DNA of 42,401 nucleotides. Origin: Gemmatimonadota bacterium (GTDB taxonomy: Bacteria > Gemmatimonadota > Gemmatimonadetes > Gemmatimonadales > GWC2-71-9). Shown here piece by piece: positions 2,022-35,858 of this stretch. Within the stretch, counting starts at the first letter, position 1, and the number at the start of each line of letters is the position of its first letter. The notes beneath the pieces are model-generated. The model had not been told where the DNA came from and searched no databases. It saw only the letters and a list, made by a program, of their open reading frames with translations. Both the position numbers and the translations under genes were made by a program. The DNA lies in the NCBI GenBank assembly GCA_003221005.1, contig QHTZ01000017.1, positions 1-42,401 on the forward strand, read 5' to 3'.

Positions 2022-3060
2022 AGAGCTCCGTGGCGGGCTCGTGGAGACCCGCCACGTCGTGCACGCTGCCGTCGTAGACGCGACGGGCCGGCTGCTGGGA
2101 CACGCCGGCGATCCAGAGCTGGTGACGTTCTGGCGCTCGGGGGCGAAGCCGTTCCAGGCGCTGCCCCTCGTGCAGGACGGCGTGGTCGAGCGCTTCGGCA
2201 TCACCGCGCCCGAGCTCGCGCTCTGCTGCGCCTCCCACTCGAGCGAGCCGCAACAGGTGCGCCTGGTGCGCGACCTGCTCGACAAGATCGGCTGTAGCGA
2301 GCGCGATCTGCTATGCGGGTCGCACCTGCCGCTCTCGGAGCGAGTCGCACAGGACTACGCGACCCGCGGCGTGCGGCTCACCGCCGCCTATTCGAACTGC
2401 TCGGGGAAGCACGCCGGCATGCTGGCGCTGGCGTGCCACCATGGCTGGCCGGTCGCGTTCTACACCCGTCGCGATCACCCCGTGCAGCAGCGCTGCCTGA
2501 CCGAGGTCGCCCGCTGGAGCGAGGTGCCCGCCGAGCGGGTCGGCACTGCGGTGGATGGGTGCGGCGTGGTGTGTTTCGCGATTCCGCTGCGCAACATGGC
2601 GCTGGCGTACGCGCACTTGGCAAATGCGGAATTCGGAATGCGGAATGCGGAATCGCAGGGGGAGTTTCGCGGCGCGAGCGACCTCGCATCGCCATTCCGG
2701 ATTTCGCATTCCGCATTGCGCATTGTGGAAGCCATGCTCCGCCATCCCGAGTTGATCGCCGGCGACGGTCGCCCGTGCACCGACATGATGCGCGCGCACC
2801 CGGGGCGGGTCGTCGCCAAGGTGGGGGCCGCAGGTGTGTACTGCGGCTTGTTGCCGCAGGAGGGATGGGGGATCGCCCTCAAGGTGGCCGACGGCCACGG
2901 ACCTGCGGCGGTGATCGCGATGGCCGGGATCCTCTCCGAGCTGGGCTTGCGACCGCAGCCGGAGCGCCTGGTATCGCAGCTGATCCTGAACACGCGCGGG
3001 GAGGCGGTCGGTGAGATGCGGATAAACGGGGGGCTGGAGCGCGGAAATGATGCGGAATAG
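2002..3060 (+). CDS. L-asparaginase II (Rhizobium AnsA-type) family, with in-frame repeat insertion
   Basis: Motifs RSGAKPFQA, CASHS, NCSGKHAG, DGCG, KVGAAG, KVADG. Confidence 0.85.
   Translation: MTSVIVEELRGGLVETRHVVHAAVVDATGRLLGHAGDPELVTFWRSGAKPFQALPLVQDGVVERFGITAPELALCCASHSSEPQQVRLVRDLLDKIGCSERDLLCGSHLPLSERVAQDYATRGVRLTAAYSNCSGKHAGMLALACHHGWPVAFYTRRDHPVQQRCLTEVARWSEVPAERVGTAVDGCGVVCFAIPLRNMALAYAHLANAEFGMRNAESQGEFRGASDLASPFRISHSALRIVEAMLRHPELIAGDGRPCTDMMRAHPGRVVAKVGAAGVYCGLLPQEGWGIALKVADGHGPAAVIAMAGILSELGLRPQPERLVSQLILNTRGEAVGEMRINGGLERGNDAE
2623..2724. repeat. Inverted heptamer-array hairpin (GGAATGC / GCATTCC), in frame in the asparaginase gene
   Basis: aatgcgg aattcgg aatgcgg aatgcgg aat ... 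cattccg gatttcg cattccg cattgcg catt. Confidence 0.95.

Positions 3061-3750: not shown

Positions 3751-3780
<30 letters not shown>
3079..3780 (+). CDS. Carboxymuconolactone decarboxylase / AhpD-like protein
   Basis: GLDLKRRELCTLA...QLHAHLRGALNTG CMD-family pattern. Confidence 0.85.
3101..3131. repeat. Degenerate REP palindrome in the 5' end of the CMD gene
   Basis: aaccccggggtcgtgcgccggggtcacccgg resembles the REP at 6765-6804. Confidence 0.6.
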
Positions 3781-6272
<2,492 letters not shown>

Positions 6273-6274
<2 letters not shown>

Positions 6275-6359
6275 GCCCCGGGCCGTCGGCTTGGGCGGCT
6301 GCCCGCGTGGGCGCGCCTGCCTTGAACCCCGGGCCGTCGGCCCGTGGTTAACCGACCCG
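6273..6359. repeat. Two REP-like palindromes upstream of the Y1 transposase
   Basis: gagccccgggccgtcggcttggg and gaaccccgggccgtcggcccgtggttaaccgacccg; inverted relative to the 6765-6804 copy. Confidence 0.85.
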
Positions 6360-6367
6360 CGCTGGCC

Positions 6368-6775
6368 ATGCGGAAGCGGGGGCCTCACAAGGCTTGTGGC
6401 TTATACGCCCACATTACGTGGCATACGTGGCGCAGGCAGAGGTCGGTGCGCGCGGTCGACGTTGCTGACATCACTGACGCCGTGCGTCAAGCGGCTCACT
6501 GCCGCGGCGTGCACGTGCACGCGCAGGCTGTCCTCTCCGATCACGTGCATGTCATCGTGAGTTACAACCCTGCCGTCGCGCTCGCGCCGTTCATTCGCCA
6601 CGCGAAGTCGGAGTCTGCGCGTCGTCTAAACCTTAGGCGCGGAAGTCCAGGGATCTTTCGGTGGTGCCGCGGCTACTATGCCGGTTCGCTCTCCCGCAGT
6701 CACGTCGGCCTCGCGCGCGGGTACGTGGGCCGGCAGCACTTCCGGCACCCGGACCGGATCCCCGCTTCCGGGTAG
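6368..6775 (+). CDS. tnpA: IS200/IS605-type Y1 HUH transposase (TnpA/RAYT-like)
   Basis: HITWHT, HUH motif DHVH, W..GYY..S, catalytic Y in YVGRQ; 135 aa; no tnpB. Confidence 0.88.
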   Translation: MRKRGPHKACGLYAHITWHTWRRQRSVRAVDVADITDAVRQAAHCRGVHVHAQAVLSDHVHVIVSYNPAVALAPFIRHAKSESARRLNLRRGSPGIFRWCRGYYAGSLSRSHVGLARGYVGRQHFRHPDRIPASG

Positions 6776-6804
6776 GTTGACCCCGGGGCGACGCCCCGGG
6801 GTTC
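6765..6804. repeat. REP palindrome downstream of the transposase
   Basis: cttccggGTAGgttgaccccggggcgacgccccggggttc; GTAG contains the tnpA stop. Confidence 0.92.
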
Positions 6805-6833: not shown

Positions 6834-7970
6834 GTGCACCTCTACCTCCACGTCCCCTTCTGTGCCCGCCGCTGTAGCTACTGCGACTTCTCGATCGCCG
6901 TGCGCCGGCGCATTCCGGTGCGGGGGTACGTGGAGTGCGTGCTGCGCGAGCTGGGGGACCTGATCTCTTCCGGGTGGGTTGACCCCGGGGCGTCGCCCCG
7001 GGGCTCCCTCTACCTCGGCGGGGGGACACCGTCGCTCCTGCCGCCCGAAGCGGTCGCGACTCTTCTCACGCATCTCCTCGACGCCTTTTCCTCGACGCCT
7101 TCCCTTGACGCCCTTGAGGTAACGATTGAAGCGAATCCTGAGGACGTGACGCTCTCGACCGCCTCGTCCTGGCGTCGCTCCGGCATCAACCGCGTGTCGC
7201 TCGGCGCCCAGTCCTTTGACGACAATGTGTTGCAGTGGATGCATCGCTTCCACGACGCCGCGCGCATTGGAGCCGCGGTGCGCACGCTGCGCGCCGCGGG
7301 GCTCGACAACATTTCCCTCGACCTGATCTTCGCACTCCCCCCCGAGCTCAACCGCGACTGGTCCCGCGACCTCGATGAAGCCCTCGCGCTCGCTCCGCCG
7401 CATCTCTCGGTCTACGGCCTCACGGTTGAGGAGCGCACGCCGCTGGCCCGCTGGATTAGCCGTGGCACGAGCTCCGCCCCGGATGACGACCGTTACGCCG
7501 CCGAATACCTGCTGGCGCACGAACGGCTGCGCAACGCGGGCTACCACTTCTACGAGGTGTCGAACGCCGCCCGCGACGGGCACCGCAGCCGCCACAACTC
7601 CGCCTACTGGTCTGGTCGCCCCTACTCGGGCCTCGGTCCGGCGGCGCACTCCTACGACGGCCGCGTGCGCCGCTGGAACCTGGCGCCGTGGGAGGCGTAT
7701 CGTCGCGCCGTGCAGTCGGGGCGCTCTGCCATCGAGTCGCAGGAGATCCTCACTGACGAGCAACGTGAGCTGGAGCGGATCTATCTCGCGCTGCGCACCG
7801 ATGCCGGTCTGCCTGTTTCCGCCCCTTACCGCCTCCTACCGCCCCTTACCGCCTGGGTGGAGAGGGGGTGGGTGGCACTCCGGGGAGGACGGCTCGCGTG
7901 CACCGCCCAGGGCTGGTTGCGCCTCGACTCCCTGGTCCGTGACTTGACCGCGCTCGCTGTGGCTGTCTAA
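6834..7970 (+). CDS. hemW: Radical SAM heme chaperone HemW (HemN-like)
   Basis: LYLHVPFCARRCSYCDF, GGGTPS, EANP, YEVSN, HNSAYW; upstream of hrcA. Confidence 0.93.
   Translation: MHLYLHVPFCARRCSYCDFSIAVRRRIPVRGYVECVLRELGDLISSGWVDPGASPRGSLYLGGGTPSLLPPEAVATLLTHLLDAFSSTPSLDALEVTIEANPEDVTLSTASSWRRSGINRVSLGAQSFDDNVLQWMHRFHDAARIGAAVRTLRAAGLDNISLDLIFALPPELNRDWSRDLDEALALAPPHLSVYGLTVEERTPLARWISRGTSSAPDDDRYAAEYLLAHERLRNAGYHFYEVSNAARDGHRSRHNSAYWSGRPYSGLGPAAHSYDGRVRRWNLAPWEAYRRAVQSGRSAIESQEILTDEQRELERIYLALRTDAGLPVSAPYRLLPPLTAWVERGWVALRGGRLACTAQGWLRLDSLVRDLTALAVAV
6967..7006. repeat. REP copy in frame in hemW
   Basis: 37/40 identical to 6765-6804; encodes SGWVDPGASPRG. Confidence 0.92.
7817..7854. repeat. 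Decamer tandem array (TACCGCCCCT type) in hemW
   Basis: ttccgcccct taccgcctcc taccgcccct taccgcc. Confidence 0.85.
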
Positions 7971-11200: not shown

Positions 11201-13476
11201 GCGTGGGGGGAGGGGTCACCCCCTCCGTGCTGGATACACTTGAGTTTCCTGCCGCGCTGGAGCGGGTGGCGGCGCACGCCGTATCCCCGCTCGGAGCGGC
11301 GCGGGTCCGCGCCCGCACCGCCGCTACCGATCCCGCTACGATCCAGGCCGCTCTCGCGCAGGTGGCCGAGCTCGCTGCCCGTATCCTCGTGGATGATGCC
11401 ATCCGCGCGGAGCCGATCCCGGACATCGGCCCAGCTCTGGAGCTGCTCGCGGTGCCCGGAAGCGCCCTCGAAGGCCTGGCCCTCGCTGGGATCGGACGCG
11501 CGCTCGCCGCGGCACGGCTCGTGGCGGCTGAGCTGGGGCGACTGGCGGCGGACGCGCCGCGCACGGCGGCGCTGCGCGTCTCCCTCCCACCGAAGGAGCT
11601 CGAGGCGCGCCTCGCGGAAGCGCTCGACGCGGACGGCACCGTGCGCGAAGGCGCGTCGCGGGACCTGGCACGGGCGCGCCAGGCGGTGCGCGAGACGCGA
11701 CAGCGGCTCGTCGCCAAGCTCGAAGCGATTCTCGCGGGGCTGGACCAGCGGGAGCGAGCTCCCGACGCAGGCGTCACCGTGCGCGGGGGCCGCTACGTGA
11801 TCCCGGTGCGGGGCACCGCGCGCAGCCAGGTTGGCGGCATCGTGCACGACGAATCGGCGACCGGGGCGACGCTGTTCGTCGAGCCACCGGAAGCGATCGC
11901 GTTGGGTAACGAGCTGCGCGCGCACGAGGTCCAGGAGCAGCGCGAGGTATTGCGCGTGTTGCGCGAGCTCACCGAGCGGCTGCGCCCCGCGCGCGCCGCC
12001 ATCGCGGCCGCCTGGGAGATGTGCATCGCGTTCGACGACCTGTGCGCGCGCGCCCGCTACGCGATCGCAGTGAATGGCTGGCCGCCGGCGCTGGGCGACG
12101 GACCCCTCACGATCCGCAATGGGCGTCATCCCCTGCTCGTCCCGGCCTCAGGGGGTGAGGACAAACAGGGGGACACCAGCGATCTAGTCGTCCCGTTCGA
12201 CCTGACGCTCGCTCCCGATGAATTCACTCTGCTCGTGTCCGGCCCCAACACCGGCGGCAAGACGGTGCTGATCAAGGCCGTCGGCCTGATCTGCCTGCTG
12301 GCGCAGAGCGGTGTCATTCCACCCTTGGGTCCCGAGTCCCGGCTCCCGGTGTTCCGCGAGGTCTTTGCCGACATCGGCGACCGCCAGTCGATCGCGGCGA
12401 GCCTGTCGACCTTCTCGGCGCACGTGGCTGCGCTGCGCGACATCCTCGAGCGGGCGCGTGCGGAGTCGCTCGTTCTGCTCGACGAGGTGGGCAGCGGCAC
12501 CGACCCAGCCGAGGGGGCGGCGCTCGCCGCCGCGGTCTTGCGGACGCTCACCCGCCGGCGCGCGGTGACGCTCGCGACCACGCATCTGGGTGCGCTGAAG
12601 CAGTTGGCGACGGAGACCGTGGGGATCGTGAACGCCTCGCTCCAGTTCGACGCGGAGACGCTGACGCCGACGTACCGCCTGCTGAAGGGCGTGCCGGGTC
12701 GCTCCTACGGGCTCGCCATCGCGCGGCGGCTGGGCGTGGACGCCGAGGTGCTGGCCGAAGCCGAGCACGCCCTCCCCGATGCGGCGCGGGCGCTCGACAC
12801 CCTGCTCGCCTCGGTCGAAGCGCGGTCGCGCGAGCTCGAGCTGCGCGCGCAAGAGCTCGATGCGGCGGCGGAAGAGCAGCGCGCGCGCCTGGCCGCGCTC
12901 GAGTCGCGGGGCGCGACGGTCGCGGATCGCGAGCGAGAGGTCGCCGCGCGGGCCCAGGCGCTCGAGCACGACGCGCGGGCGCAGGCACGGGCGTACCTGC
13001 TGGAAGCGCGGCGGCGGGTCGAAGACGCGTTGGGCGCGGCGCGCGCCGCCGTAGACGAGGCGACCGCGAAGGAGGCGCGGCGGCTCGTCGAAAAGGCGAT
13101 CGAAGAGACCGGGGAAGAGGGACGAGGGAAGGGGGAAGGGTGGCTCTCGCTGGAGGAATTGCGGCGTCAGCGGCAGGCGCCCACGCCGTCCGGCCGTCCG
13201 ACCGTCCGAGCGTCCGACCGTGTGGACACCGCCGCCTCCGAGATCTCCCTCCGCGGCCTGCGGCTCGACGAGGCCGAGGCGAAGCTGATCAAGGCGCTCG
13301 ACGACGCCGTGCTCGCGGACCTCCCCTACCTGCGGGTGATTCACGGCAAGGGGACGGGCGCGGTTCGGAAGCTGGTGCACGACGTGCTCGCCGGCGATGC
13401 GCGGGTCAAGCGGTTCGCGTTGGCGCCCGGGAATCAGGGCGGCGCCGGCGTCACCGTGGTGGAATTCCGGGCCTGA
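11197..13476 (+). CDS. mutS2: Endonuclease MutS2
   Basis: SGPNTGGKT, DIGDRQSI, STFSAH, DEVGSGTDP, C-terminal Smr (IHGKGTG). Confidence 0.95.
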   Translation: MSVGGGVTPSVLDTLEFPAALERVAAHAVSPLGAARVRARTAATDPATIQAALAQVAELAARILVDDAIRAEPIPDIGPALELLAVPGSALEGLALAGIGRALAAARLVAAELGRLAADAPRTAALRVSLPPKELEARLAEALDADGTVREGASRDLARARQAVRETRQRLVAKLEAILAGLDQRERAPDAGVTVRGGRYVIPVRGTARSQVGGIVHDESATGATLFVEPPEAIALGNELRAHEVQEQREVLRVLRELTERLRPARAAIAAAWEMCIAFDDLCARARYAIAVNGWPPALGDGPLTIRNGRHPLLVPASGGEDKQGDTSDLVVPFDLTLAPDEFTLLVSGPNTGGKTVLIKAVGLICLLAQSGVIPPLGPESRLPVFREVFADIGDRQSIAASLSTFSAHVAALRDILERARAESLVLLDEVGSGTDPAEGAALAAAVLRTLTRRRAVTLATTHLGALKQLATETVGIVNASLQFDAETLTPTYRLLKGVPGRSYGLAIARRLGVDAEVLAEAEHALPDAARALDTLLASVEARSRELELRAQELDAAAEEQRARLAALESRGATVADREREVAARAQALEHDARAQARAYLLEARRRVEDALGAARAAVDEATAKEARRLVEKAIEETGEEGRGKGEGWLSLEELRRQRQAPTPSGRPTVRASDRVDTAASEISLRGLRLDEAEAKLIKALDDAVLADLPYLRVIHGKGTGAVRKLVHDVLAGDARVKRFALAPGNQGGAGVTVVEFRA
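13112..13221. repeat. Heptamer array (GGGAAGG) plus octamer array (CCGTCCGA) in the mutS2 linker
   Basis: gggaaga gggacga gggaagg gggaagg (13112-13139); ccgtccgg ccgtccga ccgtccga gcgtccga ccgt (13186-13221). Confidence 0.85.
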
Positions 13477-13478
13477 GC

Positions 13479-15257
13479 GTGATCCCCGACGACGTCATCG
13501 AGCAGGTGCGCGACGCCGCGGATCTGGTGGGGATCATCGGCGAGCACGTGGAGCTCAAGCGCACCGGTGCCGACTACCGCGGCCCGTGTCCATTCCATGG
13601 CGGCACGCACCGCAACTTCGCCGTGATCCCGAAGAAGGGGATGTTCTACTGCTTCGTCTGCCATGAGGCGGGGGACGTCTTCACCTTCTTCATGAAGAAG
13701 GGGGGAATGGACTACCCGACGGCGGTACGTGAAGTGGCCCGGCGGGTCGGGGTGACCATCCCGGAGCGCAACGCACCGAGCGGGCCTGATCCGAACGAGC
13801 CGCTGTTCGCTGCCGTTGCCGCCGCTGCCGACTGGTATGCGCGGCAGCTCCGCGACAGCCCTGAAGCCGAGGTTGCTCGTCAGTACCTCCGCTCGCGCCA
13901 CCTCGAGCTCGAGACAGTGCTGCCCCTGGGCCTGGGTTATGCCCCCCCCGCTTCGGCTCCCGGCGCCGGTTTTCAGGACGCGATGAAAAGCTTGGGATTG
14001 CGTGACCCGGTGTTGCTCGAGGCCGGTCTCCTCGTTAAACGCGATGATGGCGCCCTGGTGCCGCGATTTCGGGGGCGGCTGCTGTTCCCGATTCATGACC
14101 TGCGGGCGCGGGTCGTGGGCTTCGGCGGCCGGATCCTGGGTGAGGGCGAGCCCAAGTACTTGAACTCGCCCGACACGCCGATCTTCCACAAGGGGAAGCT
14201 GCTGTACAACCTCCACGTCGCGAAGCAAGCGATCCGCAAGGCCGAGCGCGCGATCATCGTCGAAGGCTACTTCGACGTGTTGCGCCTCGCGCTCGCCGGA
14301 CTCGAGGAGGTCGTGGCTCCCCTCGGCACCGGGCTCACGGCCGAGCAGGCGGAGCTAGTCGCGCGGTACACGTCTCAGGTGTTCCTGCTCTACGACTCCG
14401 ACGATGCCGGCCTCCGGGCCACGTTCCGGGCGGGCGATGAGCTGCTGCGTCACGGGTTGCGCGTCAGCGTAGCCACGCTACCGGATGGCGAGGACCCGGA
14501 CACCATCGTCCAGCGGCGCGGCGGCAGGGCTCTCGCCGAGACGCTCAAGGACGGCGTCGACCTGTTGGAGCGCAAGATCCAGATCCTCGAGCGCAAAGGG
14601 TTCTTCGCCTCGCTCCCCGGCCGGCGGCGGGCGCTCGATCGCCTGCTCCCCACGATCCGCGCGGCGCGGGATCCCATTACGCGGGAGCTCTACCTGTCGC
14701 GGACAGCGGAGGTCGCCGGGGTCCGCAAGGACGTCTTGGAGCGCGAGTCGGGAAGCGGGAAGCGGGATGCGGGAAGCATCCCTACCCCTCCCGCATCTCG
14801 CATCCCGCATCCCGACCTTCCGGCCAGCGCCGAGAAGGCGCTGCTCCTGCTCATGCTGCACAGCCCCGAGTGGGAGTCCCGTGTCGTAGATGCGGTCGAC
14901 GCGGAGAGCTTCAAATTCGTCCCGTATCGCGCGGTATTCGAGTCACTGGTCGAGAAGGCGCCGGAGCGTCTCGACGAAGTGAGCGCCCGGGTGCTCGAGC
15001 AGCTTCACCAGGAGAGGCTGGGCGGGAGCTCGCCCGATGAGATCTTCGAGAGCGCCATCGCCTCGATCGAGGCGGACCGCATCTCAAGGCAGATCGAGCG
15101 CATCAAGGGTGAGCTGGCGCTGGTGTCGGGGGACGAACAACTCCGTCGCATTCAAGAGCTACAGCAGCTGGTGGCTGAACGGAACGCCGAGCGGCCGACC
15201 TGGCAGATCGTCGAAAACGCGAAGAGTGCAAGGAGGCGAGGTGCGTCCGGAACTTGA
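13479..15257 (+). CDS. dnaG: DNA primase
   Basis: CPFH..CFVC zinc finger, PKYLNSPDT, EGYFD, YDSDDAG (TOPRIM). Confidence 0.97.
   Translation: MIPDDVIEQVRDAADLVGIIGEHVELKRTGADYRGPCPFHGGTHRNFAVIPKKGMFYCFVCHEAGDVFTFFMKKGGMDYPTAVREVARRVGVTIPERNAPSGPDPNEPLFAAVAAAADWYARQLRDSPEAEVARQYLRSRHLELETVLPLGLGYAPPASAPGAGFQDAMKSLGLRDPVLLEAGLLVKRDDGALVPRFRGRLLFPIHDLRARVVGFGGRILGEGEPKYLNSPDTPIFHKGKLLYNLHVAKQAIRKAERAIIVEGYFDVLRLALAGLEEVVAPLGTGLTAEQAELVARYTSQVFLLYDSDDAGLRATFRAGDELLRHGLRVSVATLPDGEDPDTIVQRRGGRALAETLKDGVDLLERKIQILERKGFFASLPGRRRALDRLLPTIRAARDPITRELYLSRTAEVAGVRKDVLERESGSGKRDAGSIPTPPASRIPHPDLPASAEKALLLLMLHSPEWESRVVDAVDAESFKFVPYRAVFESLVEKAPERLDEVSARVLEQLHQERLGGSSPDEIFESAIASIEADRISRQIERIKGELALVSGDEQLRRIQELQQLVAERNAERPTWQIVENAKSARRRGASGT
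14747..14816. repeat. Inverted heptamer-array hairpin (GGGAAGC/GGGATGC versus GCATCCC), in frame in dnaG
   Basis: gtc gggaagc gggaagc gggatgc gggaagc ... tcccgca tctcgca tcccgca tcccgac. Confidence 0.92.
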
Positions 15258-20370: not shown

Positions 20371-21992
20371 GCCGGCTCGACCGCCTGCTTCCGGCGCTGG
20401 AGCTGGTGTGCGGCGCGACATTGCGGGTGTGGCGCCATGACGGGAGGAAGGTGCAGGCGCTCGCGGGTCCCGCGCCGGCGGGCACGCCCGCCTGGACGCC
20501 CCCCATCCCGCTTAACGGCGGGGGACCGGTTGCGACCCCGGACGGTCCGGCGTGGCTCGAGCGGGTACCGGATGCGGACGGCGTGTGGCTTGAAGTTCGG
20601 GACCGGGGAAAAGCAACAGGGGATGAGGGGGGCGCCATGCGGCGGGCGGTCGCGCTGGTGGTCGGGTCCGTGCTCGCCACCGAGCGCGAGGCCACGCAGG
20701 TCGCCGCAGAGCTGTCGGAGCGCTACGAGGAGATCGACCTGATCTACACGATCAGCGAGATCCTCGGCCACACGATCCGCCTGGACGAGGCAGCCCAGCG
20801 CATCATCACCGAGGTCTCTACCGTCGTGCGCGCCCAGCGGGCGACGTTGCTCGTGGCTGACGAGGAGCGCCGGGTGCTGCGGCTGGTCGCGGCACGGGGG
20901 ATCGATCCAGGAGAGTTGGACCCGCGCGACGCCGAGGCGATCGAGCTGGATGACGCCTGCTCGGTCGCCGCGCGCGTGTTTCGAGAGGGACGGATCATCG
21001 CGTACGACCCGACCGATCCCGCGGCCGAGAACCCCGGGTGCGCGGAGGGGCGTCGCTACAAGGGGAAGGCCTTTTTGTCCGTCCCCGTGCTGTACGCCGC
21101 ACCGGGGCAGCCTTCGCGCCCCATCGGCGTCATCAACCTTACGGACCGGTTGGGGGAAGACGCTTTCACGGCGGGGGACCGCAAGCTCGTGGCCGCGATC
21201 GCGAACCAGATCGGTGCGGCGATCGAAAACGCCCGACTCGCGGCGCGTGATCTGAGCCAGCAGCAGATGCGGCGTGAGCTCGAGCTCGCGCGCGATCTGC
21301 AGCTGAAGCTGCTGCCTTCGCCGCTCGTGATCGCGGCACGCGCGGACGTGGCGGCGCGCTGTCGCCAGGCCGAATCGGTGGGCGGCGACTTCTACAACCT
21401 GCTCAGCCTGTCCGGGGACCGGCTGGGCGTGATGATCGGCGACGTGACGAGCCACGGCTTCGGGGCCGCGCTCATCATGGCGCTCGCGATGGCGGCGTCC
21501 GGCATCCACGGCGAAGCGGCCGACTCGCCGAGTGAGGCCATGGAACGGCTGGAGGAGTCGCTCAAGGACGAGCTCGCGCGTACCGAGATGTTTCTCACCC
21601 TGTTCTACGGCGTGCTCGACCCCTCGGTCGGCCGTCTGACGTATGCCAATGCTGGACACGCGCACGCGTTCGTCGTCGAGGGGACGACCGGGGAGTCGAC
21701 CCGTCTCGCGGCCACGCGCCCACCGCTGGGACTCGCCGCTACCCACGGGCGTGACGAGATGCGTCCGTGGCGGCGCAAGCGCGACCTGTTGTGCCTGTTC
21801 ACCGACGGGATCGCCGACGCCCTGAGCGAGCGCGGCGAGCGCTTCGGTGAGGAGCGCCTCCTCGGTCACGCGCGCTCGCTGCGCGAGCGACCGACGCGCG
21901 AGATCCTCGAAGCGATCTACGCCGACCTGGCAGCCTTCACCGGCGGCGCGCCGCCCTCCGACGACCGTACCCTGGTGCTGCTCAAGGTGTGA
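20346..21992 (+). CDS. GAF + PP2C (SpoIIE/RsbU-type) phosphatase
   Basis: GAF domain, VGGDFY, GDVTSHG, YANAGH, FTDG, DDRTL; start uncertain. Confidence 0.92.
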   Translation: MPDAPGGLSRLDRLLPALELVCGATLRVWRHDGRKVQALAGPAPAGTPAWTPPIPLNGGGPVATPDGPAWLERVPDADGVWLEVRDRGKATGDEGGAMRRAVALVVGSVLATEREATQVAAELSERYEEIDLIYTISEILGHTIRLDEAAQRIITEVSTVVRAQRATLLVADEERRVLRLVAARGIDPGELDPRDAEAIELDDACSVAARVFREGRIIAYDPTDPAAENPGCAEGRRYKGKAFLSVPVLYAAPGQPSRPIGVINLTDRLGEDAFTAGDRKLVAAIANQIGAAIENARLAARDLSQQQMRRELELARDLQLKLLPSPLVIAARADVAARCRQAESVGGDFYNLLSLSGDRLGVMIGDVTSHGFGAALIMALAMAASGIHGEAADSPSEAMERLEESLKDELARTEMFLTLFYGVLDPSVGRLTYANAGHAHAFVVEGTTGESTRLAATRPPLGLAATHGRDEMRPWRRKRDLLCLFTDGIADALSERGERFGEERLLGHARSLRERPTREILEAIYADLAAFTGGAPPSDDRTLVLLKV

Positions 21993-22807
21993 CACGACTC
22001 GGCCAGCACTTCCTCGCCGATCCCAACCTCCTCCACAAGATCGCCGCGGCCCTCGACCCCGGGGCCGACGACGTGGTGCTCGAGATCGGGCCGGGGACGG
22101 GGAACCTGACCCGCATCGTTGCGCCCCAGGTCCAGCGGCTCATTGCCATCGAACGGGATCGCCGGCTCGCTTCCGAATGCGGAATGCGGAATGTGGAATG
22201 CGGAATCAAAAATGTGACGGTCGTGCCGGGTGACGCCCTAGAGCTGAATTGGCACGCACTTCTCGACACCGTACCTGACATTCCGCATTCCGCATTCCGC
22301 ATTCCGCATTTCAAGCTCATCGGCAACATCCCCTACTACATCACCTCGCCGCTCATCGCGAAGGCACTGACCCCCCCGCTCCCCGAGCGCATCGTGTTTC
22401 TGGTGCAGCGCGAAGTCGCCGACCGGCTCGCGGCTCGTCCGGGGACGAAGCCGTATGGCGCGCTCTCCGTGGGGGTGCAGGCGACGTGCCGCGTGGAGCA
22501 GCTGCTCGTGGTGCCGGCGGGGGCGTTCCGGCCGCGCCCCAAGGTGGACAGCGCGCTGGTGCGGCTCACGCCGCTCGCCGAGCCGCTCGTCACTCCCGGG
22601 GAGACGGGGGCGTTCCGCACGTTCGTCGCCGCGTGTTTCAGCCGGCGACGCAAGCAGCTGCGGAACGCGGTCATGGCCGCCACCCGAAAGCCCGCAGCGG
22701 CGGTGACGGCGCTGCTGGCCGAGGTGGGGCTCGACCCGGTCAGCCGGCCCGAGAGGGTTGCTCCCGCGGGGTTCGCCCGACTCTTGCGCGCGAGTCAGCA
22801 ATTGTGA
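21989..22807 (+). CDS. rsmA: 16S rRNA dimethyltransferase RsmA/KsgA, with two repeat-encoded segments
   Basis: LGQHFL, EIGPGTG, GDAL, GNIPYYITSP, F.PRPKVDSA. Confidence 0.96.
   Translation: MTRLGQHFLADPNLLHKIAAALDPGADDVVLEIGPGTGNLTRIVAPQVQRLIAIERDRRLASECGMRNVECGIKNVTVVPGDALELNWHALLDTVPDIPHSAFRIPHFKLIGNIPYYITSPLIAKALTPPLPERIVFLVQREVADRLAARPGTKPYGALSVGVQATCRVEQLLVVPAGAFRPRPKVDSALVRLTPLAEPLVTPGETGAFRTFVAACFSRRRKQLRNAVMAATRKPAAAVTALLAEVGLDPVSRPERVAPAGFARLLRASQQL
22175..22310. repeat. Inverted heptamer arrays within rsmA
   Basis: gaatgcg gaatgcg gaatgtg gaatgcg gaat (22175-22206) and cattccg x4 catt (22279-22310). Confidence 0.95.
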
Positions 22808-23444: not shown

Positions 23445-23547
23445 AATGCGGAATTCGGAATGTGGAATGCGGAATTGATGTGGGAGGTCGTTCGCCTCCG
23501 CGACACCCACATTTGAATTCCGCATTCCGCATTGCCCATTCCGCATT
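23445..23547. repeat. Intergenic inverted heptamer-array hairpin (rex-arcA)
   Basis: aatgcgg aattcgg aatgtgg aatgcgg aatt / inner stem atgtggg..cccacat / aattccg cattccg cattgcc cattccg catt. Confidence 0.95.
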
Positions 23548-23564
23548 CGTTTACATTCCCGCCC

Positions 23565-28043: not shown

Positions 28044-30445
28044 TCGTGTCACGCCGCTGGCTCGAGGCGCTGCTCGGGCGCGCGCTCGACCCGCAGGACC
28101 TGGAGCGGCGCCTGGGCATGCTCGGCGCTCCGGTCGAGGGGATCGTTCCGCTGCACCAGGATCTTGCGGACGTGCGTGTCGCCCGCGTCCTCGAAGTCAA
28201 GCAGCACCCCAACGCCGACCGGCTCACGCTCTGTCTCGTGGACGTCGGCGGATCGGGAGGAGCAGGGCCGGTCGAGGTGGTGTGTGGCGCGCCGAACGTG
28301 CAAGCGGGAAAGAAATATCCCTACGCCGCCGTCGGCGCAGTGCTGCCCGGCGGCGCGAAGCTCGAGCGCAAGAAGATCCGCGGCGTCGAGTCGAACGGCA
28401 TGCTCTGCTCGGCCAAGGAGCTCGGCCTCGGCGAAGACCACGCGGGGATTCTCGAGCTCGACACCGACGCCCCGCCCGGCACGCCCTTCCTCGACGCCTA
28501 CCCGATCGCCGACCATCAGATCGTCATCGAAGTGACCGCGAACCGGCCGGACCTGCTCTGTCACAAGGGCGTGGCGCGGGAGCTGGGAGCGTCGTTGGGA
28601 GCGACCATCAAACTGCCGGAGCTACCGGTCGGACGGTCGGACCGTCGGACGGTCGGACCGAACTACCGTCCGGCTGTCCGACGGCCCGACCGGGGAGCGG
28701 TGGATGGAGTGGAGATCCGCCTCGAGGATGCGGAAGGTTGTCCCCGGTACATGGCCGCGGTCATCCGAGGTGTCCGCGTGGGGCCAAGCCCCGCCTGGCT
28801 CGCCGGCCGGCTGGGGAACATCGGCCAGCGCTCCATCAACAACGTGGTGGACGCGACGAACTACATCCTCTTCGAGCTGAACCAGCCGCTGCACGCGTTC
28901 GATCTCGCGCGCCTGCGCGGGCCCGCGGTCGTGATCCGGCGCGCGCGTGCCGGCGAGCGCATCGTCACGCTGGACGGTGTCGAGCGCACACTCACCGCCG
29001 AGATGACGGCCATCTGCGACGCCGAGCGGCCCACCATCGTGGCGGGCGTGATGGGGAGTGCCGAGTCCGAGGTGACGCCCGCGACCACGGATCTCGTCCT
29101 CGAGTGCGCCTATTTCCAGCCCACGCGCATCCGCCGCACACGGCGCGCGCTCGGCCTCTCGAGCGAGTCGAGCTATCGCTTCGAGCGCGGCATCGACCTG
29201 TTCGGCATGCCGGACGCGCTGCGCCGCGCGATCGAGGCGATCGTCGCGGTCGCGGGCGGCGAGGTGCGCGAGGCGCTCGATCTGTGGCCCCAACCGATTC
29301 ACGAGAAGACGATCTTCCTGCGTCCGGAGCGCGTGGCGCAGCTCCTCGGGATGACGGTCGAACGCCGCGATATCGAGCAGCTGCTTTCCGCCATCGGCTT
29401 CGTCGTAGCGCCCAAGGACAGCCGGCTCGCGGTGCAGGTGCCCGGCTGGCGGCCCGACGTGACGCACGAGGTGGACCTGATCGAGGAAACGGCGCGGCTG
29501 AAAGGCTACGGCGCCTTTCCTGACGAGTTGCGTCCGTACCGCCCGGGGACGGTCCCCGATGCACCAATCGAGCGCGCCAAGGAGCGAGTGCGGCAGGCGA
29601 TCGCGCGCGGCGGCTTCTACGAGGCGCGAACGTTCCCCCTCGGCCCGGCTGATGGACCCGACGCGGTCGAGGTGCTGAACCCGTTGTCCGCAGAGGAGGC
29701 GCACCTTCGCACCCGACTGCTCCCGGGCTTGGTGCGCCGGGTGGAGCACAACTGGGCGGGACGAAACAGGGATATTCGGCTGTTCGAGGTGGGGACGGTG
29801 TTCCGACGGGGCACGAGTGGCGTCGCAGAGCGGACAGCTGTCGCGGGTGTGCTGACCGGAGCACGGCGGCCGCCACACTGGACGGAGGGTGCGAAAGTAC
29901 CTGATATGGACATATGGGACTTGAAGCACCACTTTGAGTTAGCTGTCAGGCTGGCGGCCCCCGCGTGCCACGTGCAACCGGCGCCGGGTGGGGCGCTGGG
30001 TTGGGTGGCGGTGAAACGGGGCGGTGGTGGGGATGATGTGGGTGGGTGGGCGGGGGCGCTCGAGGCCGACGCCCCAGTGTGGGCGGCGCCGCTGTTCGGC
30101 TTTGAGGTGCGGCTCGAGGTTGTCGAGCTTGCGCCCGCGTTGTACCGGGCGCTGCCAGTCACGCCGCCGGTGGAGCGGGATGTGGCGCTGGTGTTGCCGC
30201 CCGACGTGACAGCAGAGGCGGTAGCCGGGGTGCTGCACCGCACCAGTGGCACGCTGCTCGAAGCGCTCGACGTGTTCGACGAATACCGCGGCCCCGGGAT
30301 TCCGGCCGACCACCGGAGCGTGGCCTGGCATCTCTCGTTCCGCGATCCGGGCCGCACGCTGCGCGAGGGCGAGGTGGACAAGATTCTCGCGGCGGCAATG
30401 CGGGCCCTGGAGGACGAGCTTGGCGTACGACGGAGAGCGGGCTGA
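28040..30445 (+). CDS. pheT: Phenylalanine-tRNA ligase beta subunit
   Basis: HPNADRL, VCGAPN, NRPDLL, NNVVDATNY, QPLHAFD, RFERG, FDX-ACB C-terminus. Confidence 0.97.
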   Translation: MIVSRRWLEALLGRALDPQDLERRLGMLGAPVEGIVPLHQDLADVRVARVLEVKQHPNADRLTLCLVDVGGSGGAGPVEVVCGAPNVQAGKKYPYAAVGAVLPGGAKLERKKIRGVESNGMLCSAKELGLGEDHAGILELDTDAPPGTPFLDAYPIADHQIVIEVTANRPDLLCHKGVARELGASLGATIKLPELPVGRSDRRTVGPNYRPAVRRPDRGAVDGVEIRLEDAEGCPRYMAAVIRGVRVGPSPAWLAGRLGNIGQRSINNVVDATNYILFELNQPLHAFDLARLRGPAVVIRRARAGERIVTLDGVERTLTAEMTAICDAERPTIVAGVMGSAESEVTPATTDLVLECAYFQPTRIRRTRRALGLSSESSYRFERGIDLFGMPDALRRAIEAIVAVAGGEVREALDLWPQPIHEKTIFLRPERVAQLLGMTVERRDIEQLLSAIGFVVAPKDSRLAVQVPGWRPDVTHEVDLIEETARLKGYGAFPDELRPYRPGTVPDAPIERAKERVRQAIARGGFYEARTFPLGPADGPDAVEVLNPLSAEEAHLRTRLLPGLVRRVEHNWAGRNRDIRLFEVGTVFRRGTSGVAERTAVAGVLTGARRPPHWTEGAKVPDMDIWDLKHHFELAVRLAAPACHVQPAPGGALGWVAVKRGGGGDDVGGWAGALEADAPVWAAPLFGFEVRLEVVELAPALYRALPVTPPVERDVALVLPPDVTAEAVAGVLHRTSGTLLEALDVFDEYRGPGIPADHRSVAWHLSFRDPGRTLREGEVDKILAAAMRALEDELGVRRRAG
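28625..28693. repeat. Inverted octamer-array hairpin (GGTCGGAC / CCGTCCGA), in frame in pheT
   Basis: cc ggtcggac ggtcggac cgtcggac ggtcggac cg aacta ccgtccgg ctgtccga cggcccga ccgg. Confidence 0.9.
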
Positions 30446-35744: not shown

Positions 35745-35848
35745 GAATGCGGAATGCGGAATTCGGAATGCGGAATCGAAATGGAGTGTCGTTCGCGGCA
35801 CGACGCTCCACCTGACATTCCGCATTCCGCATTCCACGTTCCGCATTC
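35745..35848. repeat. Intergenic inverted heptamer-array hairpin (ispA-dxs)
   Basis: gaatgcg gaatgcg gaattcg gaatgcg gaat / inner stem tggagtgtcgt..acgacgctcca / cattccg cattccg cattcca cgttccg cattc. Confidence 0.95.
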
Positions 35849-35858
35849 CCGAAGCCTG

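Follow-up and report, generated by a model that had tools for sequence, protein, structure and literature searches.

The interspersed repeats of bacteria are as a rule attributed to mobile units that enter a site in one piece. A repeat that consists of stems only, with essential host coding sequence as its interior, is found in the rsmA (ksgA) gene in a 42,401-nt stretch of DNA (hereafter the window; contig QHTZ01000017.1, positions 1 to 42,401, assembly GCA_003221005.1) from a Gemmatimonadota bacterium of the order Gemmatimonadales, whose 2.79-Mb, 94%-complete genome we call G000. The deduced protein matched the Pfam family RrnaAD (E 8.5e-53; 179.6 bits against a cut-off of 24) as well as solved KsgA/RsmA structures, 6ifs_A among them at E 3.1e-37. 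Its GxGxG, IExD, GDAL and GNIPY motifs are intact, all invariant columns of a 28-row alignment being present (including E32, G34, G36, G38, E55, D57, D82, L84, G112, N113, P115 and Y116), and an AlphaFold model based on that alignment had a mean predicted local distance difference test (pLDDT) score of 91.9. The gene, the sole strong match in G000, is predicted from its sequence to encode the RsmA/KsgA 16S rRNA dimethyltransferase.

Within this gene, two tandem arrays of a seven-base word, hereafter the arms, face each other in inverted orientation across a 72-nt loop (Table 1). Tandem Repeats Finder, with which arrays were called, gave 100% matches for the period-7 array of the right arm, and the inverted-repeat search used for stems found positions 22176-22206 and 22280-22310 to be 97% complementary across 31 nt, 73 nt apart. 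The motif GGAATGCGGAATG occurs 34 times in the window at up to two mismatches, with 0.81 expected and a maximum of 5 among 100 shuffles. The hairpin stretch is predicted to fold at -87.2 kcal/mol as RNA (z -8.4) and at -52.1 kcal/mol as DNA (z -7.8), each matched by 0 of 200 shuffles.

The loop is native RsmA sequence. In an alignment of 29 rows, the window RsmA and 28 orthologues from relatives, NVxVVxGDALxLDW aligned in all 29, with or without arms. This bears out the initial annotation, which had read the loop as the ordinary KsgA strand and GDAL motif and quoted the arm peptides as ECGMRNVECGI and IPHSAFRIPH, both of which are exact in the window open reading frame (ORF). The extra length is split over two sites in the same alignment and has no single insertion point. 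The spacing from DRxL to NV is 14 residues in the window and 8-11 in unarmed rows (+4 compared with G004, an unarmed member of the same genus), and that from LDW to GNIPY is 23 residues compared with 12-13 in unarmed rows (+10); gaps also fall at both arm sites in an alignment with Bacillus KsgA structures. Thus, the orthologue comparison called for at the outset turned up neither a loop that fails to align nor a clean single point of entry, and the view that this is no simple one-piece insertion, with arms standing separately on each side of host sequence, is supported by the two indel sites and the native loop.

The arms have also overwritten coding sequence. From IExD to GNIPY the window gene measures 192 nt, and the 21 full-length alleles without a repeat longer than 13 nt measure 132-210 nt, mostly 132-159 nt. 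Together the arms amount to 64 nt, yet relative to the armless congener G004 only 42 nt have been gained on balance, so that about 20 nt of native sequence are gone, nearly all of them at the left site. Overwriting is likewise seen under other words, 48 nt of arms accompanying a gain of 21 nt in G003 and 58 nt a gain of 24 nt in G016. In the AlphaFold model the left-arm peptide lies within helix 58-70 (block pLDDT 93-95) and the right-arm peptide forms a low-confidence loop (block pLDDT 66-69). Both proposals made for the arms, replacement of helix sequence on the left and a longer loop ahead of GNIPY on the right, therefore hold: the 32 nt on the left yield a net gain of just four residues within a modelled helix, and the right arm adds ten residues as a low-pLDDT loop.

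As to read support, which the initial annotation had wanted to see, short contigs of one public soil run span both arm-loop junctions (22177-22240 and 22242-22303, with 0-1 differences), in a run that is possibly not independent of the assembly. Contigs in public runs break within the arms, and over positions 22151-22314 the depth of the arm words in four soil metagenomes exceeded that of the flanking gene by a factor of ~100 to 2000. Soil contigs further contained many other loops between GGAATGC-type arms, several with an inner hairpin module that we describe below; together, the depth of the arm words and the many alternative loops indicate that the GGAATGC family is very abundant in those soil communities. 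No strand-changing joint was listed in the soil-run contigs over the rsmA hairpin, contigs being apt to drop rare variants.

The same two sites carry arms in relatives. Inverted repeats of 24-34 nt were found at both sites in 8 of the 30 alleles of a first set, the other 22 having none longer than 13 nt, and repeats of at least 15 nt in 12 of the 39 alleles of a second, order-wide Gemmatimonadales set (40 fetched, one of them without a clean frame); arms are also present in three named metagenome-assembled genomes (MAGs) labelled Gemmatimonadota or Gemmatimonadales. In an RsmA tree of 70 Gemmatimonadales rows, built with the variable region left out, 24 rows are armed and 19 of these fall within one clade of 25 rows (Shimodaira-Hasegawa-like approximate likelihood ratio support 98), the six unarmed rows of which are G004 together with five genus g30 alleles of less than baseline length. 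This tree, many forks of which are unresolved, needs at least 17 word changes and at least 9 presence changes. We distinguished 11 word labels (GGAAYGC, CAGGTGT, GGGATTS, GGGAAGN, GGGRCTC, GYGGCGY, GGGCGTG, GGCGCAC, GCGGTGC, GGGAAAA and GGGAAAC), and the exact borders of the arms vary from word to word. Across 23 alleles, with arms defined by the repeat search itself, pairing is kept at 323 of 345 stem cells while the left arms are only 32% alike. DNA alignments of the sister pairs G016/G084, G066/G069 and G041/G081 were too divergent for dating the re-spelling.

Several alleles show intermediate or altered states. G006 has a left arm only and is missing 21 nt (7 residues) of the right arm present in its sister G005, a loss that fits slippage, and G014 has a left array whose complementary partner is absent. 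The rsmA gene of G017 is split over two contigs inside the right arm. G063, G162, G158 and G101 are unarmed yet have extra residues at both sites, lacking complementarity, which may be eroded arms. G004, although of the same genus as G000 and 100% complete, has arms neither in rsmA nor in the linkers of its E2 acyltransferase gene, and its rsmA sits on a long branch (0.62-0.65). Candidate native "seed" words in G004 (CAGGTGC and GAACGTG, with one occurrence apiece at the left site, and CCGTTC at the right) were at chance level and, as the arms may have been lost secondarily, were set aside. The MAG G001 (4% contamination) has two rsmA alleles with different arm words, L011 (C12) and L031 (C23), near-identical over ~250 upstream columns, with likeness falling across ~300 columns around the arms; alleles alike upstream and different in word point to allele exchange. 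Both are frameshifted in the assembly, C23 near the start and at each arm, which may stem from misassembly at the repeats or from two strains in which the gene is broken. As a separate observation, the genus g30 alleles L142, L143, L144, L146 and L150 encode RsmA proteins of 237-239 residues, short at both arm sites, while their congener G041 carries CAGGTGT arms; the short proteins may reflect over-deletion following arm loss.

We compared the arm word with the repeats elsewhere in each genome, counting matches to three units of each of six words (at most two mismatches, both strands) in 14 genomes. GGAATGC matches numbered 96 in G148, 70 in G069, 60 in G110, 53 in G054 and 42 in G000, and at most 10 in the nine others; these five genomes are exactly those whose rsmA arms read GGAAYGC. 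CAGGTGT was most frequent in its two carriers, G041 (18) and G003 (14). GGGACTC had its maximum in G066 (16) and GGGAAAA in G072 (87), and the sisters G016 and G084 were split between two words, GGGATTC peaking in G016 (43, against 16 in G084) and GGGAAGC in G084 (91, against 18 in G016). Thus, of the six words tested, the one used in rsmA was the commonest in all 11 of the 11 armed genomes, in agreement with word counts made earlier in five genomes. This tracking of each genome's commonest word points to a genome-wide process. G004 had 0 matches for all seven array patterns searched (the six words and the degenerate GGGANSN), and a four-helix-bundle (PF05635) gene was not found in it; that it has neither arrays nor rsmA arms also suggests a genome-wide process.

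In G000, the rsmA hairpin is one of many. Among 276 non-redundant period-7 arrays, adjacent pairs were inverted in 57 cases and direct in 2, and period 8 added 19-20 inverted pairs built like the heptamer hairpins, so that there are ~76 hairpins of heptamers or octamers, the one in rsmA included. Their arms have a median length of 30 nt (73 of 116 in the 4-copy class) and belong to several word families, with AATGCGG in 11 pairs and several families of the GGGACGR, GCGRGAT and GGGAAAC types. The loops, of 1 to 372 nt, are unrelated from locus to locus and hold little, a shared inner hairpin module, a whole four-helix-bundle gene or host coding sequence. By a crude test of open frames and G+C content at third codon positions, 23 of the 76 hairpins are intragenic; by its sequence, a tandem 7-nt unit specifies the identical 7-residue peptide in each frame, and the words are stop-free on both strands.

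The arms are strongly polarized. A complementary partner lay 3' of the array in 53 of 53 cases when the array was G/A-rich and 5' of it in 58 of 59 when it was C/T-rich, which places the G-rich arm first in 111 cases against 1 in this partner-side count; 57 of 58 pairs are convergent with the G-rich array leading. A partner is lacking for 118 arrays, roughly half of those that are purine-rich or pyrimidine-rich. These solo arrays had their G-rich strand on the locally G-skewed strand in 54 cases and not in 29, a modest, Chi-like orientation bias of which gene orientation is a possible source.

Some hairpins of this class do enter as one piece. The GGAATGC hairpin just 3' of rex occurs in G000 and, in decayed form, in G002, and the corresponding sites in G005, G006 and G003 are short and empty; by this comparison it is a one-piece insert, with no target duplication seen at the site. 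Three of the four GGAATGC hairpins in the window share the inner module. The rsmA loop gave no match up to E 100 in a genome-wide nhmmer search with a profile of seven such modules, and we rejected the notion that it mimics the inner module of one-piece elements as a recognition site. The same lack of likeness leaves the suggestion that the rsmA loop was converted to host sequence unsupported.

Other hairpins bracket larger or native-looking segments. Five of the six four-helix-bundle genes in G000 lie between inverted periodic arrays, each with a unit of its own and two of them with non-heptamers. In an RsmB-like gene (C141:42741-43009, L036), arms of the GATGCGA type flank 216 nt of native-looking sequence; one of five relatives, G009 from another genus, had a match at E 1e-40 or better (67% identity), and the four congeners had none. 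In the E2 acyltransferase gene of G000, arms flank a linker, the subunit-binding domain and a further linker, linkers that are too variable for a codon-level statement.

Table 1. Features of the window discussed in the text (positions count from its first letter).
Feature	Position	Strand	Evidence
rsmA (ksgA), predicted 16S rRNA adenine dimethyltransferase; reads ...RRLASECGMRNVECGIKNVTVVPGDALELNWHALLDTVPDIPHSAFRIPHFKLIGNIPY...	21989..22807	+	intact ORF, 272 codons (272 aa); Pfam; structures; invariant columns
Left arm, 4.6 tandem GAATGCG, read (S)ECGMRNVECGI; replaces part of the helix after the IExD strand	22175..22206	+	
Loop, 72 nt, native RsmA KNVTVVPGDALELNWHALLDTVPD, beta strand and GDAL motif	22207..22278	+	orthologue alignment
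Right arm, 4.6 tandem CATTCCG, read IPHSAFRIPH; net +10 residues before GNIPY	22279..22310	+	
Same-word (GGAATGC) hairpin just 3' of rex, with its own 41-nt inner module	23445..23548	.	
Same-word (GGAATGC) hairpin, inner module GGAGTGTCGTTCGC..CGACGCTCC	35745..35849	.	
Same-word (GGAATGC) hairpin with inner module	2623..2725	.	
GGAACGC / CGTTCCG arms enclosing a whole four-helix-bundle gene	3751..4178	.	Pfam 23S_rRNA_IVP, E 4.2e-15
Hairpin with arms in different word variants: left arm mostly GGGAAGC, right arm the complement of GGGATGC/GAGATGC	14749..14814	.	
Octamer arrays CCGTCCGA and CGGTCGGA	13186-13221 and 28626-28660		

Template switching between partner arms predicts that they mirror each other unit for unit. 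Genome-wide, however, the order of unit variants was not mirrored: 168 mismatches were found at 1505 paired positions, compared with 159.6 +/- 5.1 when the unit order of one arm was shuffled. In just 29 of 54 hairpins did an arm resemble its own partner more than it did the partners of its family mates, and the window hairpin at 14749-14814 pairs two different word variants. Thus, the arms behave as independent draws, with no detectable genome-wide copying between partners. Old hairpins may have lost such mirroring, and in the rsmA genes of G002 and G015 both arms contain the same rare unit variant in shifted register.

How, then, did the rsmA arms arise? Our tentative preference, to which we give somewhat less than an even chance, is for two separate arrays, each written or converted from a pool that spans the genome, and for a hairpin that did not enter in one piece. 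The rsmA hairpin would then be an "arms-only" member of the class with stems of ~4.5 inverted tandem heptamers, its arms laid individually to the left and right of the native segment of strand and GDAL motif, at two places on the surface where the enzyme tolerates them. The site would have been occupied for long in one clade of Gemmatimonadales RsmA and its arms repeatedly re-spelled in the heptamer word currently dominating the host genome, the sequence coming from the genome-wide pool through a trans-acting writer or ectopic copying between arrays. Upkeep would not depend solely on copying one arm from the other, and later change would proceed by slippage in three-unit (21 nt) steps, arm loss and allele exchange by homologous recombination. 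The native loop, the two separate indel sites, the partial overwriting, the recurrence at the same two sites, the word tracking and the polarity are observed; a step that writes or converts the arms, the enzyme behind it and the template it would use are inferred, as is the templated or recombinational mechanism proposed in the initial annotation. The geometry of the polarity, with G-rich 3' ends toward the loop, would fit synthesis primed from 3' ends or, by the Chi rule, a Chi-like protection against breaks within the loop.

The main rival is a local origin, in which slippage makes one array and intrastrand template switching across the native segment makes, and still corrects, its partner; we consider this unlikely, if well worth keeping in view. 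It accounts for the native loop and for the overwriting; a published account (PMC8794818) presents template switching as a route to stems around unchanged sequence that overwrites its target. A single switching event can give rise to a fully paired stem, and bulges can be transferred from one half to the other. Both arms switch word together in 23 alleles. The rare variants common to both arms in G002 and G015, and the 21-nt loss in G006, are what slippage and local copying would leave, and the related words of G103, L049, L050 and L051 suggest change in place. Against it, unit order is unmirrored genome-wide and the two arms of one hairpin resemble each other no more than they resemble arms elsewhere in the genome; it also leaves unexplained both the match to the commonest word in 11 of 11 genomes and the 111-to-1 polarity. 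That a one-piece mobile hairpin, similar to a miniature inverted-repeat transposable element (MITE) or a Rickettsia palindromic element (RPE), entered rsmA and the gene adapted later seems to us very improbable. Although same-word elements with the inner module do insert whole, as the rex site shows for G000 and G002 compared with G005, G006 and G003, the rsmA loop is native in 29 of 29 orthologue rows and has no likeness to the inner module, the added length is divided between two sites, the span of 136 nt is not divisible by three, and even the rex site lacks a target duplication.

Compatible with any of these origins is the possibility, which we rate as improbable, that the hairpin is kept for a function, such as RNase III-type cleavage, control of translation or an invertible off-switch. 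Pairing has survived many word changes in the 23 alleles, the predicted stem is very stable, and the minus strand is open across the hairpin (ORF 21982-22329, minus strand), so that an inverted form would stay in frame. However, like hairpins lie between genes, in E2 linkers at a spot that differs per genome and around four-helix-bundle genes, which leaves nothing specific to rsmA, and the arms are missing in G004 and five g30 alleles and seemingly eroded in several others, all with genes still open.

Several observations weigh against arms written from a genome-wide pool. The five GGAAYGC species have 82-83% identity in the arms, 75-80% in the flanks and 63% in the loop; as the arms are barely more conserved than the flanks, vertical descent explains much of this group. 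The close kin G103, L049, L050 and L051 have G+C-rich words that are related to one another, as would be expected if words changed slowly in place with no pool involved. Tracking fails at the level of word variants in G009, whose exact matches are mostly GGATTGC while its rsmA arms read GGAATGC/GGAGTGC. The comparison covers six words only, those of G098 and G103 lying outside it; moreover, kin are not independent and each rsmA locus adds a few matches to the count of its own genome. Four-helix genes follow the arrays loosely, G014 having 40 array matches and no such gene. As to the writer, a search of the 94%-complete G000 gave no match to the reverse transcriptase family RVT_1, and we rejected a reverse transcriptase in this role. 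A REP-associated tyrosine transposase (RAYT; REP, repetitive extragenic palindromic) was rejected as mobiliser because both Y1_Tnp genes of G000 are flanked by palindromes of another kind, not by heptamers.

The repeat class itself, convergent pairs of heptamer arrays, is already known. Rehm et al. 2015 (PMC4692102) describe G-rich heptameric repeats in Xanthomonas (GGGAATC) and Nostoc as tandem 7-nt units with about four copies favoured, with 70-75 convergent pairs per genome, one array per strand; they are mostly intergenic, under-represented in coding regions and read as quadruplex formers. The rsmA arms resemble them in their tandem 7-nt units, with 4.6 copies per arm, and in their convergent pairing of matching polarity. 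In contrast, the rsmA unit GGAATGC has GG only and no GGG tract, thus lacking the runs of at least three G expected of a quadruplex former, and the part of the Xanthomonas account (PMC4692102) consulted includes no bracketing of native coding sequence, recurrence at the same site in different words or tracking of the commonest word. Literature searches returned neither arms on both sides of native catalytic sequence nor word tracking, though the supplementary tables for Xanthomonas may list intragenic pairs.

Other known systems share some of these properties. Template-switch mutations (PMC8794818) also place an inverted copy across unchanged sequence and overwrite the target; they differ in predicting mirrored arms and no tie to other loci, neither of which was seen genome-wide, the partial mirroring in shifted register of G002 and G015 apart. 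The cassettes of four-helix-bundle or rRNA intervening-sequence (IVS) genes have arms of the same kind and polarity, which bracket several hundred bases, whereas the segment in rsmA is host coding sequence with no PF05635 gene between the arms. RPEs are copies of one conserved element of ~100-150 bp at a single insertion point, which Ogata and colleagues reportedly described in 2000 as selfish palindromes translated inside genes. The rsmA hairpin resembles them as hairpin-forming repeat DNA in frame within a housekeeping gene, tolerated at surface positions; it differs from both RPEs and MITEs in that the repeat DNA makes up the arms only and the 72 nt between them are native, so that neither a single point of insertion nor a shared interior is found. 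The REP/REPIN-RAYT systems (REPIN, REP doublet forming hairpins) likewise consist of dispersed, short, hairpin-forming inverted repeats, and G000 has two Y1_Tnp genes; however, the palindromes flanking these genes are not heptamer arrays, and heptamers come in many families, with differences from one close relative to the next.

Stems spelled in each genome's dominant word around essential coding sequence make a long-unexplained repeat class, that of the heptamers of Xanthomonas and cyanobacteria, with arms resembling those around some rRNA intervening-sequence genes, testable at a single-copy, alignable and universal gene. What lays down the arms, for what reason the G-rich one leads and in what way a protein accommodates peptides encoded by a repeat, here by replacement of a helix and extension of a loop, can be asked there. 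Because several relatives keep extra residues at both sites without complementarity, our data suggest that arms may seed lasting length changes in conserved proteins. More speculatively, and in our estimate improbably, an undescribed system of writing or biased conversion, in Gemmatimonadales and probably many other bacteria, might lay genome-specific 7-base arrays on both strands, 3' ends inward, around arbitrary DNA including essential catalytic cores, re-spelling old sites when the word changes. A link is possible with the four-helix-bundle (rRNA IVS-protein) genes often found inside such hairpins. If true, this would be a hairpin-building molecular drive, otherwise comparable to that of uptake sequences or Chi sites.

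The window also contains a palindrome family distinct from the arrays of heptamers. Inverted REP-like palindromes at 6324-6359 and 6769-6804 (36 nt, 86% complementary) enclose a transposase gene of the Y1 (IS200/RAYT-like) type at 6398-6736, and an extra copy of the palindrome at 6971-7003, with 22 nt 100% complementary to 6781-6802, is apparently in frame in the next gene.

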